From the NCBI RefSeq assembly GCF_030013595.1, contig NZ_CP122768.1: a DNA stretch of 64,000 nucleotides; one strand, 5' to 3'. The position numbers and the translations under genes were made by a program. The stretch comes from Escherichia coli (GTDB lineage Bacteria; Pseudomonadota; Gammaproteobacteria; Enterobacterales; Enterobacteriaceae). Shown one piece after another: positions 5,901 to 41,252 of this stretch; the stretch's first letter is position 1; each line of letters opens with the position of its first letter. The notes under the pieces are model-generated. The model did no database searches. It was not told the origin of the DNA and worked only from the letters and a program-made list of their open reading frames with translations.

Positions 5901-6005
5901 ATGGAAAATAATAACCGCTTAATGCCTCATATAAGGCGGACAACCCATATCATGAAGTTTGCCCATCGTAATAGTTTTGACTTTCATTTCTTTAATGCCC
6001 GCTAG
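5901..6005 (+). CDS. speFL: speF leader arrest peptide SpeFL (34 codons)
   Basis: ATG at 5901 preceded by AAGAGG/AAAGG; hand translation MENNNRLMPHIRRTTHIMKFAHRNSFDFHFFNAR then TAG at 6003-6005; about 300 nt upstream of speF; too short for the ORF track. Confidence 0.8.
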   Translation: MENNNRLMPHIRRTTHIMKFAHRNSFDFHFFNAR

Positions 6006-9841: not shown

Positions 9842-9875
9842 AAAAAAGGGCGATCTTCCGACCGCCCTTTTTCTT
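9842..9875. terminator. Bidirectional rho-independent terminator between potE and pgm
   Basis: AAAAAGGGCG-loop-CGCCCTTTTT hairpin with A-run and T-run on either side, between convergent genes. Confidence 0.7.
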
Positions 9876-16209: not shown

Positions 16210-17266
16210 GGCTTTGTTGAATAAATCGAACTTTTGCTGAGTTGAAGGATCAGATCACGCATCCTCCCGACAACACAGACCATTCCGTGGCAAAGCAAAA
16301 GTTCAGAATCACCAACTGGTCCACCTACAACAAAGCTCTCATCAACCGTGGCTCCCTCACTTTCTGGCTGGATGATGAAGCGATTCAGGCCTGGTATGAG
16401 TCGGCAACGCCTTCATCACGAGGAAGGCCCCAGCGCTATTCTGATCTCGCCATCACCACCGTTCTGGTGATTAAACGCGTATTCCGGCTGACCCTGCGGG
16501 CTGCGCAGGGCTTTATTGATTCCATTTTTTCTCTGATGAACGTTCCGCTACGCTGCCCGGATTACAGCTGTGTCAGCAGGCGGGCAAAGTCGGTTAATGT
16601 CAGTTTCAAAACGCCCACCCGGGGTGAAATCGCACACCTGGTAATTGATTCCACCGGGCTGAAGGTCTTCGGTGAAGGCGAGTGGAAAGTCAAAAAGCAT
16701 GGCCAGGAACGCCGCCGTATCTGGCGTAAGCTGCATCTCGCCGTTGACAGTAAAACACATGAAATCATCTGCGCTGACCTGTCGCTGAACAACGTTACGG
16801 ACTCAGAGGCCTTCCCCGGGTTAATCCGGCAAACCCACCGGAAAATCAGGTCAGCCGCCGCCGATGGCGCTTACGATACCCGGCTATGTCACGATGAACT
16901 GCGGCGTAAGAAAATCAGCGCGCTTATCCCTCCCCGAAAAGGTGCGGGTTACTGGCCCGGTGAATATGCAGACCGTAACCGTGCAGTGGCTAATCAGCGA
17001 ATGACCGGGAGTAATGCGCGGTGGAAATGGACAACAGATTACAACCGTCGCTCGATAGCGGAAACGGCGATGTACCGGGTAAAACAGCTGTTCGGGGGTT
17101 CACTGACGCTGCGTGACTACGATGGTCAGGTTGCGGAGGCTATGGCCCTGGTACGAGCGCTGAACAAAATGACGAAAGCAGGTATGCCTGAAAGCGTGCG
17201 TATTGCCTGAAAACACAACCCGCTACGGGGGAGACTTACCCAAAATCTGATTTATTCAACAAAGCC
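16210..17266 (+). mobile_element. IS903-type insertion sequence (IS5 family), 1057 bp, complete
   Basis: Perfect 18-bp terminal inverted repeats GGCTTTGTTGAATAAATC (16210-16227 and 17249-17266, reverse complement); single transposase ORF; 9-bp flanking direct repeat; length and end sequence match my recollection of IS903. Confidence 0.9.
16287..17210 (+). CDS. IS903-type DDE transposase (about 307 aa from GTG 16287; ORF track gives 322 aa from ATG 16242)
   Basis: Translation ...[36 protein letters not shown]...AADGAYDT... matches the IS903/Tn903 transposase as I recall it; ORF lies wholly within the IRs. Confidence 0.85.
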
Positions 17267-18265: not shown

Positions 18266-19930
18266 TTACTCGCCTACTTTCGCCCAGGTATCACGCAGCC
18301 CAACGGTGCGGTTAAATACCGGTTTTTCCGCCGTAGAATGGCGGCTGTCGAGGCAGAAATAACCTTCACGCTCAAACTGGAATGCTTTACCCGCTACCGC
18401 GTCTTTCAGAGACGGTTCAGCAAAGCCCTGTTTGATCACCAGCGATTCCGGGTTAATCACCGACAGGAAATCATCCGCAGCACCTGGGTTCGGCACGCTG
18501 AACAGACGATCGTACAGGCGGATTTCAACCGGCAGCGCATGTGCCGAGCTCACCCAGTGAATAACGCCTTTCACTTTACGACCATCTGCCGGATCTTTGC
18601 TTAAGGTGTCGGCGTCATAAGTACAGAAGATGGTGGTGATATTGCCTTCGGCATCTTTCTCCACGCGTTCTGCCTTAATGACGTAAGCATTACGCAGACG
18701 CACTTCTTTACCCAGCACCAGACGCTTGTACTGCTTGTTAGCTTCTTCGCGGAAATCGGCGCGATCGATCCAAATCTCACCGCTAAACGGCACCTGACGG
18801 CTCCCCATTTCCGGTTTGTTCGGATGGTTCGGCATGGTAACCATTTCACCTTCGCCCTGATAGTTTTCGATAACCAGTTTCACCGGATCGATAACCGCCA
18901 TTGCGCGCGGGGCGTTTTCGTTGAGATCTTCACGGATGCAGGATTCCAGCGACGCCATTTCAATGGTGTTGTCCTGCTTGGTCACGCCGATGCGTTTGCA
19001 GAACTCACGAATAGAAGCCGCAGTGTAACCACGACGACGCAGACCGGAAATGGTCGGCATACGCGGGTCATCCCAGCCTTCAACGTGCTTGTCGGTCACC
19101 AGCAGGTTCAGCTTACGCTTGGACATCACAGTGTATTCCAGATTCAGGCGCGAGAATTCGTACTGGCGCGGGTGAACAGGAATGGTGATGTTGTCCAGCA
19201 CCCAGTCGTACAGGCGACGGTTGTCCTGGAACTCAAGCGTACACAGAGAGTGCGTAATACCTTCCAGCGCATCGCTGATGCAATGGGTGAAGTCGTACAT
19301 CGGGTAGATGCACCACTTGTTGCCAGTCTGGTGGTGTTCAGCAAATTTAATGCGGTACAGCACCGGATCGCGCATTACGATAAATGGCGACGCCATGTCG
19401 ATTTTCGCACGCAGGCAGGCTTTACCTTCTTCAAAACCGCCGGTACGCATTTTCTCGAACAGCGCCAGGTTCTCTTCAACGCTGCGGTCGCGGTACGGGC
19501 TGTTTTTACCCGGCTGCGTCAGGGTGCCGCGGTATTCGCGGATCTGTTCCGGTGTCAGTTCATCAACGTACGCCAGGCCTTTATTGATCAGTTCGATCGC
19601 ATAGGCGTGGAGCTGATCAAAATAATCGGAGGAGTAACGGACGTTACCAGACCAGTGAAAACCTAACCACTCAACGTCGTTTTTGATCGACTCAACATAC
19701 TCGATATCTTCTTTTACCGGGTTAGTGTCGTCGAAACGCAGGTTGCACTGGCCTTTATAGTCCTGGGCGATCCCGAAGTTCAGGCAGATAGATTTCGCAT
19801 GGCCAATATGCAGATAGCCATTCGGCTCCGGCGGGAAACGGGTGTGTACTGTGGTGTGCTTACCACTGGCCAGATCTTCATCGATGATCTGACGAATAAA
19901 GTTAGTCGGGCGGGCTTCTGCCTCACTCAT
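18266..19930 (-). CDS. glnS: Glutaminyl-tRNA synthetase (554 aa)
   Basis: ORF 18266..19930; class I aaRS HIGH motif (HIGHAKS) and KMSKS-type VMSKR. Confidence 0.97.
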
Positions 19931-20049: not shown

Positions 20050-20083
20050 GAAAAAAAAGCGGCAGAGAAGATCTCCACCGCTT
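20050..20083 (-). terminator. Candidate terminator hairpin downstream of nagE
   Basis: AAGCGG...CCGCTT stem with A-run on plus strand (T-run on minus strand). Confidence 0.5.
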
Positions 20084-28408: not shown

Positions 28409-28680
28409 AGTTACTGGGGCGCTTGTTGATTCTGATATGCAGTAAGGAAATGTTCCGGGTTTGCCACATCACTGTTTGACAACTCATCACTGTAGGCCAG
28501 TATTTCATTGATTAATTTCCCACCACTATTGTTGAATTCCGAATTTCATCCTGTATGACAAAAGAATGGCTGTAGGGTGGGGAAAAAACACAAAGTAAAC
28601 AATAATTGACGAATATAGCGCCACGCTGTTCGCAACCTAACCAAACAGTCACTTTCGAGCAATTTTCCTTGAAAAAGAGG

Positions 28681-28709
28681 TTGACGCTGCAAGGCTCTAT
28701 ACGCATAAT
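28681..28709 (+). promoter_or_regulatory. Candidate sigma70 promoter of the tRNA operon
   Basis: TTGACG, 17-nt spacer, CATAAT, then GC-rich discriminator GCGCCCCGC (stringent-type); AT-rich upstream tract. Confidence 0.6.
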
Positions 28710-28749
28710 GCGCCCCGCAACGCCGATAAGGTATCGCGAAAAAAAAGAT

Positions 28750-28826
28750 GGCTACGTAGCTCAGTTGGTTAGAGCACATCACTCATAATGATGGGGTCAC
28801 AGGTTCGAATCCCGTCGTAGCCACCA
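28750..28826 (+). tRNA. metT: tRNA-Met (elongator, anticodon CAU)
   Basis: 77-nt cloverleaf GGCTACGTAGCTCAGTTGG...CTCATAA...GGTTCGAATCC...GCCACCA with encoded CCA. Confidence 0.95.
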
Positions 28827-28835
28827 TCTTTTTTT

Positions 28836-28920
28836 GCGGGAGTGGCGAAATTGGTAGACGCACCAGATTTAGGTTCTGGCGCCGCAAGGTGTGCGAGTTC
28901 AAGTCTCGCCTCCCGCACCA
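28836..28920 (+). tRNA. leuW: tRNA-Leu (anticodon UAG)
   Basis: 85-nt long-variable-arm tRNA GCGGGAGTGGCGAAATTGGTAGACG...TTTAGG...CGCACCA. Confidence 0.93.
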
Positions 28921-28943
28921 TTCACCAGAAAGCGTTGTACGGA

Positions 28944-29018
28944 TGGGGTATCGCCAAGCGGTAAGGCACCGGTTTTTGATACCGGCATTCCCTGGTTCGA
29001 ATCCAGGTACCCCAGCCA
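28944..29018 (+). tRNA. glnU: tRNA-Gln (anticodon UUG)
   Basis: 75-nt TGGGGTATCGCCAAGCGGTAAGGCACCGGTTTTTGATACCGG...CCAGCCA. Confidence 0.93.
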
Positions 29019-29052
29019 TCTTCTTCGAGTAAGCGGTTCACCGCCCGGTTAT

Positions 29053-29127
29053 TGGGGTATCGCCAAGCGGTAAGGCACCGGTTTTTGATACCGGCATTCC
29101 CTGGTTCGAATCCAGGTACCCCAGCCA
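29053..29127 (+). tRNA. glnW: tRNA-Gln (anticodon UUG)
   Basis: Identical copy of the preceding Gln tRNA. Confidence 0.93.
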
Positions 29128-29142
29128 TCGAAGAAACAATCT

Positions 29143-29219
29143 GGCTACGTAGCTCAGTTGGTTAGAGCACATCACTCATAATGATGGGGTCACAGGTTCG
29201 AATCCCGTCGTAGCCACCA
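29143..29219 (+). tRNA. metU: tRNA-Met (elongator, anticodon CAU)
   Basis: Second copy of the metT sequence. Confidence 0.93.
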
Positions 29220-29267
29220 AATTCTGAATGTGTCGAATAAGTTCGGCAAATTCACAAACCAATTTGT

Positions 29268-29342
29268 TGGGGTATCGCCAAGCGGTAAGGCACCGGATTC
29301 TGATTCCGGCATTCCGAGGTTCGAATCCTCGTACCCCAGCCA
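29268..29342 (+). tRNA. glnV: tRNA-Gln (anticodon CUG)
   Basis: 75-nt Gln tRNA with anticodon loop GGATTCTGATTCC. Confidence 0.93.
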
Positions 29343-29379
29343 ATTTATTCAAGACGCTTACCTTGTAAGTGCACCCAGT

Positions 29380-29454
29380 TGGGGTATCGCCAAGCGGTAA
29401 GGCACCGGATTCTAATTCCGGCATTCCGAGGTTCGAATCCTCGTACCCCAGCCA
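29380..29454 (+). tRNA. glnX: tRNA-Gln with anticodon CUA: amber (UAG) suppressor allele, supE44-type
   Basis: Same sequence as the preceding Gln(CUG) gene except anticodon loop GGATTCTAATTCC; anticodon CTA at 29412-29414. Confidence 0.9.
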
Positions 29455-29461
29455 CATTAAA

Positions 29462-29490
29462 AAAGCTCGCTTCGGCGAGCTTTTTGCTTT
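29462..29490 (+). terminator. Rho-independent terminator of the tRNA operon
   Basis: AGCTCGC-TTCG-GCGAGCT hairpin followed by TTTTT. Confidence 0.8.
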
Positions 29491-29496
29491 TCTGCG

Positions 29497-29607
29497 TTCA
29501 TTCAATGTCGAATGCGATGTTGACACGTCTTATCCTTCAATGTCGGATGCGACGCTGCCGCGTCTTATCCGACCTACGGTTGGCACGCATCCGGCAATGT
29601 TGTAAGG
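29497..29607. repeat. Cluster of REP-like palindromes (BIME-like)
   Basis: Repeated units of the AATGTCGGATGCGACGCTGCCGCGTCTTATCCGACCTAC type, one near-complete and two degenerate. Confidence 0.65.
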
Positions 29608-30783
29608 CTACAACCCTAACGCATATTTCAGCGCCTGACGTTTCAACACGCCAGCACGCTCCGCCGCCATCAAACCAAGATTACGCACAAAACGCAGCGG
29701 CGGCAGATTATTACTGAATCCGGCATAAAACAGATCCATACCGCTCTGCATAATGAAGTTATCCGCCATGCGCCGCATCTGGTAACGCTTGAGGACAGGA
29801 TAACTGGCCCACGCTTCGCCGTAGCTGCGGGCATTCACCAGAACATCAATCAGGGCATCGACATCACGATAACCAAGATTCACCCCCTGCCCCGCCAGCG
29901 GATGGATGGTATGCGCGGCATCGCCCACCAGCGCAAGCCCCGGCTGCACATACTGCAACGCATGGCGACGCGTCAGCGGAAACGCACCAGCGGCAAGCGG
30001 TGTCACGTAACCCAGACGCGACGGGAAATGCTTCGCGATTTCCGCCTGGAGCTGTGCCATATTCATATTCTGCAACTGGCGAATGCGCGCCGGAGAGTCA
30101 TACCACACCAGCGATGCCCAGTTATCAAACAACGGCAGAAACGCACGCGGTCCGTCCGGGGTAAATTGCTGCCAGGTGCTGTCGCCGGGATCGTTCTCAC
30201 ACTGTACGCTAATCAACATACACGACTGTGCATACTGCCAGGCATGAACGCCAATTCCCGCCATCTGCCGCACCTGCGAATTTGCGCCGTCGGCACCAAT
30301 CACCAGCTTCGCGCGGATCGTTTCACCGCCCTTCAGTTCCAGCTCCTGAAGATCATTATGGCGATGCAGCGCAATCAGCGAGCCTGGCACACGTAACGTT
30401 ACTTTCGGATGCGCTTCCAGCGCCTGCCACAGCGCCTGTTGCAGGACAGTGTTTTCCACCATGTAGCCAAGCAACGGTAGCTTAAGTTCAGCGGCGTCAA
30501 ACACCACATGCGCCGTTTCCCACTCCCACGTTTCCAGTCTGCGGTAAGGATGGCAACGCATAGCCTGTACTGCATCCCAGACCCCTAACCCTTTAAGCAA
30601 TGATACCGAAGCCGCACTAATCGCCGAGATCCGCACGTCCGGCTGGCTGTCAGCGACAAACGGTGCAGGTTGGGCATGTTCGATAACCATTACCGAAAAT
30701 CCGTGCTGAGCCAGTCCCAGCGCCAGTGCGCCGCCGACCATTCCTCCGCCGACAATGGCAATTTCCGTTGGTTGATTTGTCAT
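29608..30783 (-). CDS. ubiF: Ubiquinone biosynthesis flavin monooxygenase UbiF (391 aa)
   Basis: ORF track 29608..30789; N-terminal FAD-binding GGGMVGG. Confidence 0.93.
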   Translation of the reverse strand: MTNQPTEIAIVGGGMVGGALALGLAQHGFSVMVIEHAQPAPFVADSQPDVRISAISAASVSLLKGLGVWDAVQAMRCHPYRRLETWEWETAHVVFDAAELKLPLLGYMVENTVLQQALWQALEAHPKVTLRVPGSLIALHRHNDLQELELKGGETIRAKLVIGADGANSQVRQMAGIGVHAWQYAQSCMLISVQCENDPGDSTWQQFTPDGPRAFLPLFDNWASLVWYDSPARIRQLQNMNMAQLQAEIAKHFPSRLGYVTPLAAGAFPLTRRHALQYVQPGLALVGDAAHTIHPLAGQGVNLGYRDVDALIDVLVNARSYGEAWASYPVLKRYQMRRMADNFIMQSGMDLFYAGFSNNLPPLRFVRNLGLMAAERAGVLKRQALKYALGL

Positions 30784-30928: not shown

Positions 30929-32353
30929 ATGACCAAAAAACTCCATATTAAAACCTGGGGCTGTCAGATGAACGAGTACGATTCATCGAAGATGGCCGAT
31001 CTGCTGGATGCCACCCACGGCTATCAACTGACCGACGTGGCGGAAGAAGCGGATGTGCTGCTGCTGAACACCTGCTCAATCCGCGAGAAGGCTCAGGAAA
31101 AAGTCTTCCATCAGTTGGGTCGCTGGAAACTGTTAAAAGAGAAGAATCCAGACCTGATTATCGGCGTCGGCGGCTGCGTGGCATCGCAAGAAGGCGAGCA
31201 CATTCGCCAGCGCGCCCACTATGTCGATATTATTTTTGGGCCGCAAACGCTGCACCGTCTGCCGGAGATGATCAACTCCGTGCGCGGCGACCGCAGCCCG
31301 GTTGTAGATATCAGCTTCCCGGAAATCGAGAAGTTTGACCGTCTGCCGGAACCGCGTGCCGAAGGGCCGACCGCGTTTGTCTCCATCATGGAAGGCTGCA
31401 ATAAATATTGCACCTACTGCGTAGTGCCTTACACCCGTGGTGAAGAGGTAAGCCGTCCGTCCGACGATATTCTGTTTGAGATCGCCCAGCTTGCGGCTCA
31501 GGGCGTGCGTGAAGTTAACCTGCTCGGTCAGAACGTGAACGCTTGGCGTGGTGAAAACTACGACGGCACCACCGGATCGTTTGCCGATCTGCTGCGTCTG
31601 GTTGCTGCGATCGACGGGATCGATCGTATTCGCTTTACCACCAGCCATCCGATCGAATTCACCGACGATATTATCGAAGTGTACCGCGACACGCCGGAGC
31701 TGGTGAGCTTCCTGCATCTGCCGGTACAGAGCGGTTCCGATCGCATTCTGAACCTGATGGGACGTACCCATACAGCGCTGGAGTACAAAGCGATCATCCG
31801 TAAACTGCGTGCGGCGCGTCCGGATATTCAGATCAGTTCTGACTTCATCGTTGGCTTCCCTGGCGAAACCACCGAAGACTTCGAGAAAACGATGAAGCTG
31901 ATTGCCGACGTCAATTTCGACATGAGCTACAGCTTTATCTTCTCTGCACGTCCGGGTACGCCAGCCGCCGATATGGTTGATGATGTTCCGGAAGAAGAGA
32001 AGAAGCAGCGTCTGTATATTCTGCAAGAACGCATTAATCAGCAAGCGATGGCATGGAGCCGCCGAATGCTCGGCACCACCCAGCGTATTCTGGTAGAAGG
32101 TACATCGCGTAAGAGCATCATGGAGCTTTCCGGTCGCACTGAAAATAACCGCGTGGTTAACTTCGAAGGTACACCGGATATGATCGGTAAATTCGTCGAT
32201 GTAGAAATTACCGACGTCTACCCGAACTCTCTGCGCGGTAAAGTGGTGCGAACTGAAGATGAAATGGGTCTGCGCGTGGCAGAAACACCGGAATCGGTGA
32301 TTGCCCGTACCCGCAAAGAAAACGACCTTGGCGTGGGTTATTATCAGCCGTAA
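30929..32353 (+). CDS. miaB: tRNA-i6A37 methylthiotransferase MiaB (474 aa)
   Basis: ORF 30929..32353; radical-SAM CxxxCxxC motif (CNKYCTYC). Confidence 0.95.
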
Positions 32354-36656: not shown

Positions 36657-36937
36657 TTGTTATACAAGGCAAAGCTTGAACCAGCATCAGTACAACCCGG
36701 TTGCACCACAGCAATCCACGGGTAGCACCAAAAGAGTGCATTTTAAGAATTTTGCTTCGGAATGGTGCGGCGCATCTCGCAAAAACAAACAATAAAACAG
36801 CAATATCTTTACATTTAGCCAAACTAAATGTTACCTAACAGGCACAACACTGCACAATAAAGTTGCAGACGATAACAACACAAACACTCACAACGGGTAT
36901 CCATGCGTTCTTAACGCAGAAGATAAAGGAGTTGGAT

Positions 36938-41208: not shown

Positions 41209-41214
41209 TCACTC

Positions 41215-41239
41215 GCCGGATGACATCACGCCATCCGGC
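41215..41239. terminator. Hairpin between convergent rihA and ybeL
   Basis: GCCGGATG-loop-CATCCGGC; no strong T tract. Confidence 0.4.
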
Positions 41240-41252
41240 ACCACTCATTTCA

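Follow-up and report, generated by a model that had tools for sequence, protein, structure and literature searches.

The last of the seven tRNA genes in the metT operon of a non-K-12 Escherichia coli strain (assembly GCF_030013595.1, contig NZ_CP122768.1) carries the anticodon CUA, and on the best reading this gene is probably an amber suppressor of the supE type that arose independently. The stretch of 64,000 nucleotides that was analysed is referred to below as the window. The setting of the allele is unusual, being a lineage that differs by 2-3% from K-12 and in which every close relative readable at the anticodon is wild type.

The metT operon and its seventh gene

ARAGORN calls seven plus-strand tRNA genes between 28750 and 29454 (Table 1), and the earlier note, which had assigned the anticodon CUA to the seventh of them, was correct in its coordinates and gene order. 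The anticodon lies at 29412-29414. The two distal Gln genes had been described as differing by a single anticodon base, and their alignment confirms this, with 74 of 75 positions equal and the sole difference at column 35, i.e., at 29414, where the sixth gene has G and the seventh has A. Since the sixth gene, glnV (29268-29342), reads CTG, a wild-type tRNA-Gln2 is present beside the altered one, as it is with suppressors of the supE type. The tRNA body outside the anticodon is likewise unchanged, as judged by the alignment, by the fold (the CTA and CTG copies have the same predicted cloverleaf at the same energy, -28.0 kcal/mol) and by the score against the Rfam tRNA model, which is 62.4 bits for the CTA gene and 62.0 for the CTG copy. 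Direct reading of the CTA gene found U1/A72, G73 and the encoded CCA all present; the identity elements recognized by glutaminyl-tRNA synthetase (GlnRS) are the acceptor-stem pairs U1-A72, G2-C71 and G3-C70 and the base G73, plus U35. The tract from 28581 to 29231, promoter included, equals K-12 base for base, and from what is known of K-12 this promoter would drive transcription of the tRNAs.

ARAGORN itself labels the CTA gene tRNA-Pyl, because the program names tRNAs by their anticodon. This identity was rejected, as the gene is tRNA-Gln2 base for base save for the anticodon and lies in an enterobacterial metT operon. The annotated genes of the syntenic region include nothing like pylS or pylBCD.

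Table 1. The metT operon and the glnS gene in the window (positions counted from its first letter)
Feature	Coordinates	Strand	Basis
Sigma-70-type promoter of the metT operon: TTGACG, 17-nt spacer, CATAAT	28681..28709	+	Consensus scan, 10/12 matches
tRNA-Met (CAT), metT ortholog	28750..28826	+	ARAGORN; Rfam 71.1 bits; MG1655 gene order
tRNA-Leu (TAG), leuW ortholog	28836..28920	+	ARAGORN; Rfam; MG1655 gene order
tRNA-Gln1 (TTG), glnU ortholog	28944..29018	+	ARAGORN; alignment; MG1655 gene order
tRNA-Gln1 (TTG), glnW ortholog	29053..29127	+	ARAGORN; alignment; MG1655 gene order
tRNA-Met (CAT), metU ortholog	29143..29219	+	ARAGORN; MG1655 gene order
tRNA-Gln2 (CTG), glnV ortholog, wild-type copy kept, decodes CAG	29268..29342	+	ARAGORN; alignment; MG1655 order
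tRNA-Gln2 (CTA), glnX ortholog, putative supE-type amber suppressor gene	29380..29454	+	ARAGORN; alignment; Rfam
Intrinsic terminator hairpin, then T-run, at the operon end	29460..29485	+	Identical to K-12
glnS, glutaminyl-tRNA synthetase, expected to charge the suppressor	18266..19930	-	Full-length 554-aa ORF

Identity with supE44 and distribution of the allele

In MG1655 the operon runs metT-leuW-glnU-glnW-metU-glnV-glnX on the minus strand, and its promoter-distal gene, glnX (b0664), is annotated with the anticodon CUG. Window position 29414 aligns to MG1655 696470, which is a G in the reference when read on the strand of the window, and the CTA gene is thereby the promoter-distal tRNA-Gln2 copy, the ortholog of glnX; CUA is thus not the reference state at this gene, as had been anticipated. 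The lesion is a G>A transition at nucleotide 35 of the gene, which is tRNA position 36 and the third base of the anticodon. For XL1-Blue and JM109, supE44 has been described as a G>A at nucleotide 35 of the copy that comes next after glnV, and glnV44 accordingly became glnX44 (PMC11148124); an analysis of the ER2796 genome found the same G>A for supE44 and the same reassignment (PMC4444293), and both papers credit the latter to Singaravelan et al. 2010. The nomenclature given in the earlier note, in which supE44 is glnX44(AS) and was earlier glnV44, agrees with these two sources. In K-12 HST08, Mukai et al. removed "supE44 (or glnX44)" via two homology arms (PMC3001078); the arms match the window exactly, once each, at 29330-29379 and 29456-29504, and as they flank 29380-29454 they bracket the CTA gene. 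The claim that a supE44-type lesion sits in the last gene of the operon is borne out by the MG1655 alignment, the published lesion and the knockout arms together, and at the level of sequence the window's lesion is the supE44/glnX44 lesion, nucleotide for nucleotide. Glutamine at UAG was seen by mass spectrometry in a K-12 strain relying on supE44/glnX44 (PMC3001078), and K-12 rpoS(Am) is mentioned in the ER2796 work (PMC4444293).

The strains that carry supE44 (C600, DH1, DH5alpha, JM109, XL1-Blue and HB101, among others) share with the window the gene, the nucleotide, the G>A change and the 75-nt product, and the immediate flanks, the promoter and the terminator are identical as well. What differs is the chromosome around them: that of the supE44 strains is K-12, whereas the window is 2-3% diverged, has another metU-glnV spacer haplotype and, unlike those strains, is without the K-12 alleles at the discriminating sites near the gene. 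DH5alpha, S17-1 and XH1815 likewise have CTA in the seventh gene, and that of DH5alpha is identical to the window's. The suppressors supD/serU, supF/tyrT and supP/leuX involve other tRNAs, amino acids and loci than the Gln2 suppressor proposed here; they share the principle of a single anticodon change to CUA within a redundant tRNA set and of competition with release factor 1 (RF1), which is textbook knowledge (Eggertsson and Soll 1988, as cited in PMC11148124).

A collection of 5,426 complete E. coli genomes was used to follow the distribution of the allele. Of the 5,423 genomes in it that have the gene, 154 hold the 75-nt CTA form exactly, always on the chromosome and always once per genome, and the other 5,269 have one mismatch. 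Sixty CTA genomes were sampled, and all 60 are laboratory strains (4.50-4.77 Mb) or their transconjugants. A 229-nt query that joins the K-12 spacer haplotype to glnX-CTA matches perfectly in 133 complete genomes, and a haplotype-independent query of 187 nt (glnV-CTG, spacer, glnX-CTA) gives 133 as well, so that all complete genomes with the glnV-CTG/glnX-CTA arrangement have it on the K-12 haplotype; the window haplotype with CTA was found in none of the 5,426. A further 20 complete genomes, the J53 family, have CTA in the sixth gene, i.e., at the glnV position, and CTG in the seventh (in E. coli J53, NZ_CP195070.1, the CTA gene is at 1201-1275 of locus L140). The J53 family thus has the same 75-nt CUA tRNA in the same operon, but at the glnV position, the reverse of the window, and together with supE44 at glnX this means that the suppressor can sit in either of the two copies. 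Laboratory K-12 strains accordingly hold two supE alleles, glnX-CTA (n=133) and glnV-CTA (n=20). With 153 of the 154 complete genomes that have the CUA tRNA on the K-12 haplotype, the CTA allele is a near-diagnostic marker of laboratory strains; the one remaining genome fits none of the arrangements tested by query, which were the glnX type, the glnV type and a single copy on K-12 flanks.

Outside this collection, a 31-nt CTA pattern had 0 matches in metagenome contigs and 0 in 100,044 species-representative genomes, counts to be read against small denominators, since the wild-type control pattern hit 63 stretches in the metagenomes and 68 in the species representatives across Enterobacterales. 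The k-mer GGCACCGGATTCTAATTCCGG combined with the metU-glnV spacer haplotype would serve as a query for supE-type alleles outside K-12.

Two further observations concern how such alleles may be lost or overlooked. Full-length matches to a synthetic query with a single copy (metU spacer, one tRNA-Gln2, terminator) occur in 95 complete genomes, and in the two of these that were inspected, SY3626C1 (L161), which is like J53 in size and coordinates, and MC1061 (L162), one tRNA-Gln2 with CTG lies between metU and the terminator; this suggests that the tandem Gln2 duplicate can collapse by recombination, which could erase a suppressor copy. In the RefSeq records of DH5alpha, J53, S17-1 and XH1815 the CTA tRNA is present without an annotated feature, and the suppressor is therefore invisible in the gene tables of these K-12 records.

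Chromosomal background and origin of the change

A BLAST comparison of the window with the syntenic 80 kb of MG1655 gave blocks that are 94.7-98.5% identical, mostly 97-98.5%, and over 10.3 kb around the operon there are 242 differences between the two. The metU-glnV spacer haplotype of the window is non-K-12, and this, the level of identity and the complete-genome census place the window outside the K-12 pedigree to which supE44 proper belongs. The laboratory K-12 provenance implied by the earlier note is contradicted by the 97-98.5% identity to MG1655, by the spacer haplotype and by the relatives described below, natural isolates with CTG. A K-12 origin of the whole genome is effectively refuted by the window-wide divergence from MG1655.

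The gene content of the region differs from that of MG1655 as well. A cluster of ~8 kb, ybeQ-ybeR-djlB-ybeT-ybeU-djlC-hscC, is missing between rihA and ybeL (window 41209-41252), IS5D is missing between gltI and lnt (about 36834-36838), and the ybfP-ybfG-ybfI segment is missing between pgm and potE (about 9842-9854).

It has to be considered that CTA is nevertheless supE44 by descent, the strain being K-12 or having received the allele by recombination with K-12, by transduction or through contaminating reads (from C600, DH5alpha or S17-1). C600, DH5alpha, DH1, RR1 and similar strains match the window at 100% over 158 bp around the gene, K-12 has the same sequence as the window in 29256-29413 and 29415-29670, and supE44 strains are routine conjugation partners of farm and clinical isolates, with many transconjugants among the CTA genomes. 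The inner tract, however, is conserved across E. coli, 3,617 genomes being at least 99% identical over the same 158 bp, and its identity with K-12 therefore says nothing on origin. The nearest differences that discriminate the window from K-12 are in the metU-glnV spacer (29232, 29240 and 29255) and in the 3' end of ubiF (from 29671), i.e., at distances from 29414 of 159 bp on the upstream side and 257 bp on the downstream side, so that an imported tract would have to be shorter than ~415 bp and to have transferred only base 29414. Moreover, a second private SNP, at 31543, is not a K-12 allele, the relatives of the lineage share all bases flanking 29414 with the window, and the window is diverged from MG1655 throughout. 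Descent from K-12 is thus extremely improbable.

The relatives themselves were found in two steps of increasing closeness. With a 12-kb query the close matches among complete genomes were HCP5S3_I2 and LCP30S3_I5, both from UK pig faeces, and all other complete genomes were at most 98.6% identical. Direct alignment showed 11,997 of 12,001 bases of HCP5S3_I2 to be identical to the window (99.97%), with G at 29414, which is why its seventh gene is annotated as tRNA-Gln. Relative to both the window and MG1655, HCP5S3_I2 has nine derived substitutions, several of them non-synonymous, and it has novel RefSeq protein accessions for KdpD, GlnRS (S109), LeuS and a nitrilase-family amidase.

Closer relatives were found among public draft assemblies via exact-protein look-ups with the GltI, YbfF, PagP, GlnRS and NagE alleles. 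Compared over 20,909 bases, GCA_020366405.1 and the window differ at two, 29414 and 31543, and over 14.4 kb further on only by a 1-nt indel. GCA_026548445.1 is identical to the window over 13.9 kb and has one indel over 6.9 kb. GCA_030346525.1 (contig L146) matches the window at 100.000% over 16,732 bases, among them an insertion sequence (IS) in chiP, in a compared locus that ends 6 kb before glnX; judged by this match, it is the same strain as the window or an immediate sibling. A literature search found no publication that mentions the sibling assembly accessions. CTG was read in both Gln2 copies of HCP5S3_I2, of the loci L007, L008 and L157-L160 and of seven further loci, i.e., in every relative that is readable at the anticodon.

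The IS just mentioned is a 1,057-bp element of the IS5 family (IS903-like) at 16210-17266, with its transposase ORF at 16242-17210 on the plus strand, and it interrupts the chitoporin gene chiP. It has terminal inverted repeats GGCTTTGTTGAATAAATCG... and is flanked by a 9-bp target duplication, TCGCCGTAA. GCA_030346525.1 has the element at the same site, and it is missing from MG1655, from the pig isolates and from most relatives of the lineage. A look-up of the unique protein encoded across the chiP::IS junction found no record of it.

Over ~56 kb, the changes private to the window versus its nearest wild-type relatives are two SNPs, two single-A deletions and the IS. The SNPs are G>A at 29414 and C>T at 31543, the latter synonymous in miaB. 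At 31543 the inner cytosine of a Dcm site is altered, CCTGG to CTTGG, a position that is a classic hotspot of 5-methylcytosine deamination and also a context for long-read miscalls, and the change could be either a deamination or a base-calling error related to methylation. The deletions are in two intergenic A-runs, at about 20050 and about 60461, where the window is one A shorter than its relatives; homopolymer consensus errors and real slippage are both possible, and the assembly may therefore contain some consensus errors.

These differences bear directly on the possibility that the A at 29414 is itself an artefact of base calling, consensus building or polishing, or is carried by only a minority of the sequenced culture, and that the strain is really CTG/CTG. 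The A is private to the window, all readable relatives having G, and the other private differences are of error-prone types (the two 1-nt A-run deletions and the C>T in a Dcm motif). Position 29414, however, is in no homopolymer, Dam site or Dcm site, cross-mapping between the Gln2 copies cannot create an A that is present in neither, and an independent public assembly, the sibling contig L146, has the A-run deletion near 20050 as well. In addition, the substitutions that create a suppressor, counted in the seven anticodons, are 4 of the 168,138 possible in the 56 kb, and the chance that one of two random SNPs would make a suppressor anticodon is P about 5e-5. An error at this base is accordingly unlikely.

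The allele might also be real and yet have been made in the laboratory, either by selection on amber-mutant phage or markers or by editing of a wild isolate. Laboratory selection readily yields suppressor mutations, hardly anything else has changed on the terminal branch that bears the allele, and the complete genomes, metagenomes and species representatives searched gave no natural example outside K-12. On the other hand, the window contains no scar, marker or vector sequence, and the nearest relatives are draft assemblies of the surveillance type and farm isolates. A laboratory origin is for these reasons distinctly unlikely, more so than an error.

The reading that is preferred, and that is probably correct, remains an independently arisen supE-type suppressor in a non-K-12 strain. 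Given the non-K-12 background and the relatives with CTG throughout, CTA would be identical to supE44 by state and not by descent. A non-K-12 lineage whose readable members are wild type also points to a lesion that is independent and very recent, and the mutation would have arisen on the terminal branch leading to the window's genome.

Expected suppression and its consequences

The G>A in the seventh gene would yield a tRNA-Gln2 with the anticodon CUA, which, as in K-12, would be transcribed from the unaltered operon promoter together with the remaining six tRNAs and processed normally. GlnRS would be expected to charge it with glutamine, presumably at less than wild-type efficiency, because G36 is among the anticodon bases that GlnRS reads. 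Once charged, the tRNA would compete with RF1 for UAG and insert glutamine at some amber codons. The cell should tolerate the loss of one CUG gene, as CAG can still be decoded through glnV, the duplicate upstream, whose anticodon remains CUG. Read-through of UAG across the genome, which the earlier note had expected at low efficiency, is a reasonable extrapolation from K-12.

The synthetase that would charge the suppressor is encoded in the window (Table 1). Its ORF has no internal stop and differs from K-12 by A163T and A462S, and the exact protein is a common allele (237 collection blocks). A GlnRS co-adapted to the suppressor was considered and rejected: S109, the novel variant, is a feature of the pig isolate only, and the window has the common allele.

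Among 57 genes of the window that were checked, three end in TAG, speFL, ubiF and rlpA. If the base call is real, UAG would be partly read through, and the computed extensions would be 4 residues for SpeFL, 26 for UbiF and 6 for RlpA. SpeFL, a leader peptide encoded at 5901-6005, senses ornithine and arrests the ribosome at its own stop codon, where it blocks RF1, and it may be speculated that a tRNA reading UAG might perturb the induction of speF through it. A scan for in-frame TAG codons found none in the intact genes of the window, and no amber-interrupted gene for the suppressor to rescue. A mutation that selected for the suppressor, if there was one, therefore lies elsewhere, and the selection would presumably have been the rescue of an amber mutation outside the window.

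The window thus presents a new, independent instance of a well-known type of suppressor; the novelty is in the background, and the mechanism is that of the textbooks. If the base call is real, a CTA k-mer does not by itself suffice to flag contamination by K-12, constructs or phage that contain amber codons would be mis-expressed in this strain, and a suppressed amber mutation is probably present elsewhere in its genome. It is possible, though this is put forward tentatively, that a wild E. coli clone spontaneously gained a glnX amber suppressor and kept it for rescuing an amber mutation elsewhere, e.g., in a regulator such as rpoS, on the pattern of the early K-12 pedigree. There would be a precedent for such a natural setting, since Marshall and Levy reportedly described amber suppressors in environmental coliforms (in Nature, 1980). 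If this scenario is true, informational suppression would be a natural compensatory route in E. coli, and the supE44 event would have been repeated independently outside the laboratory strains.
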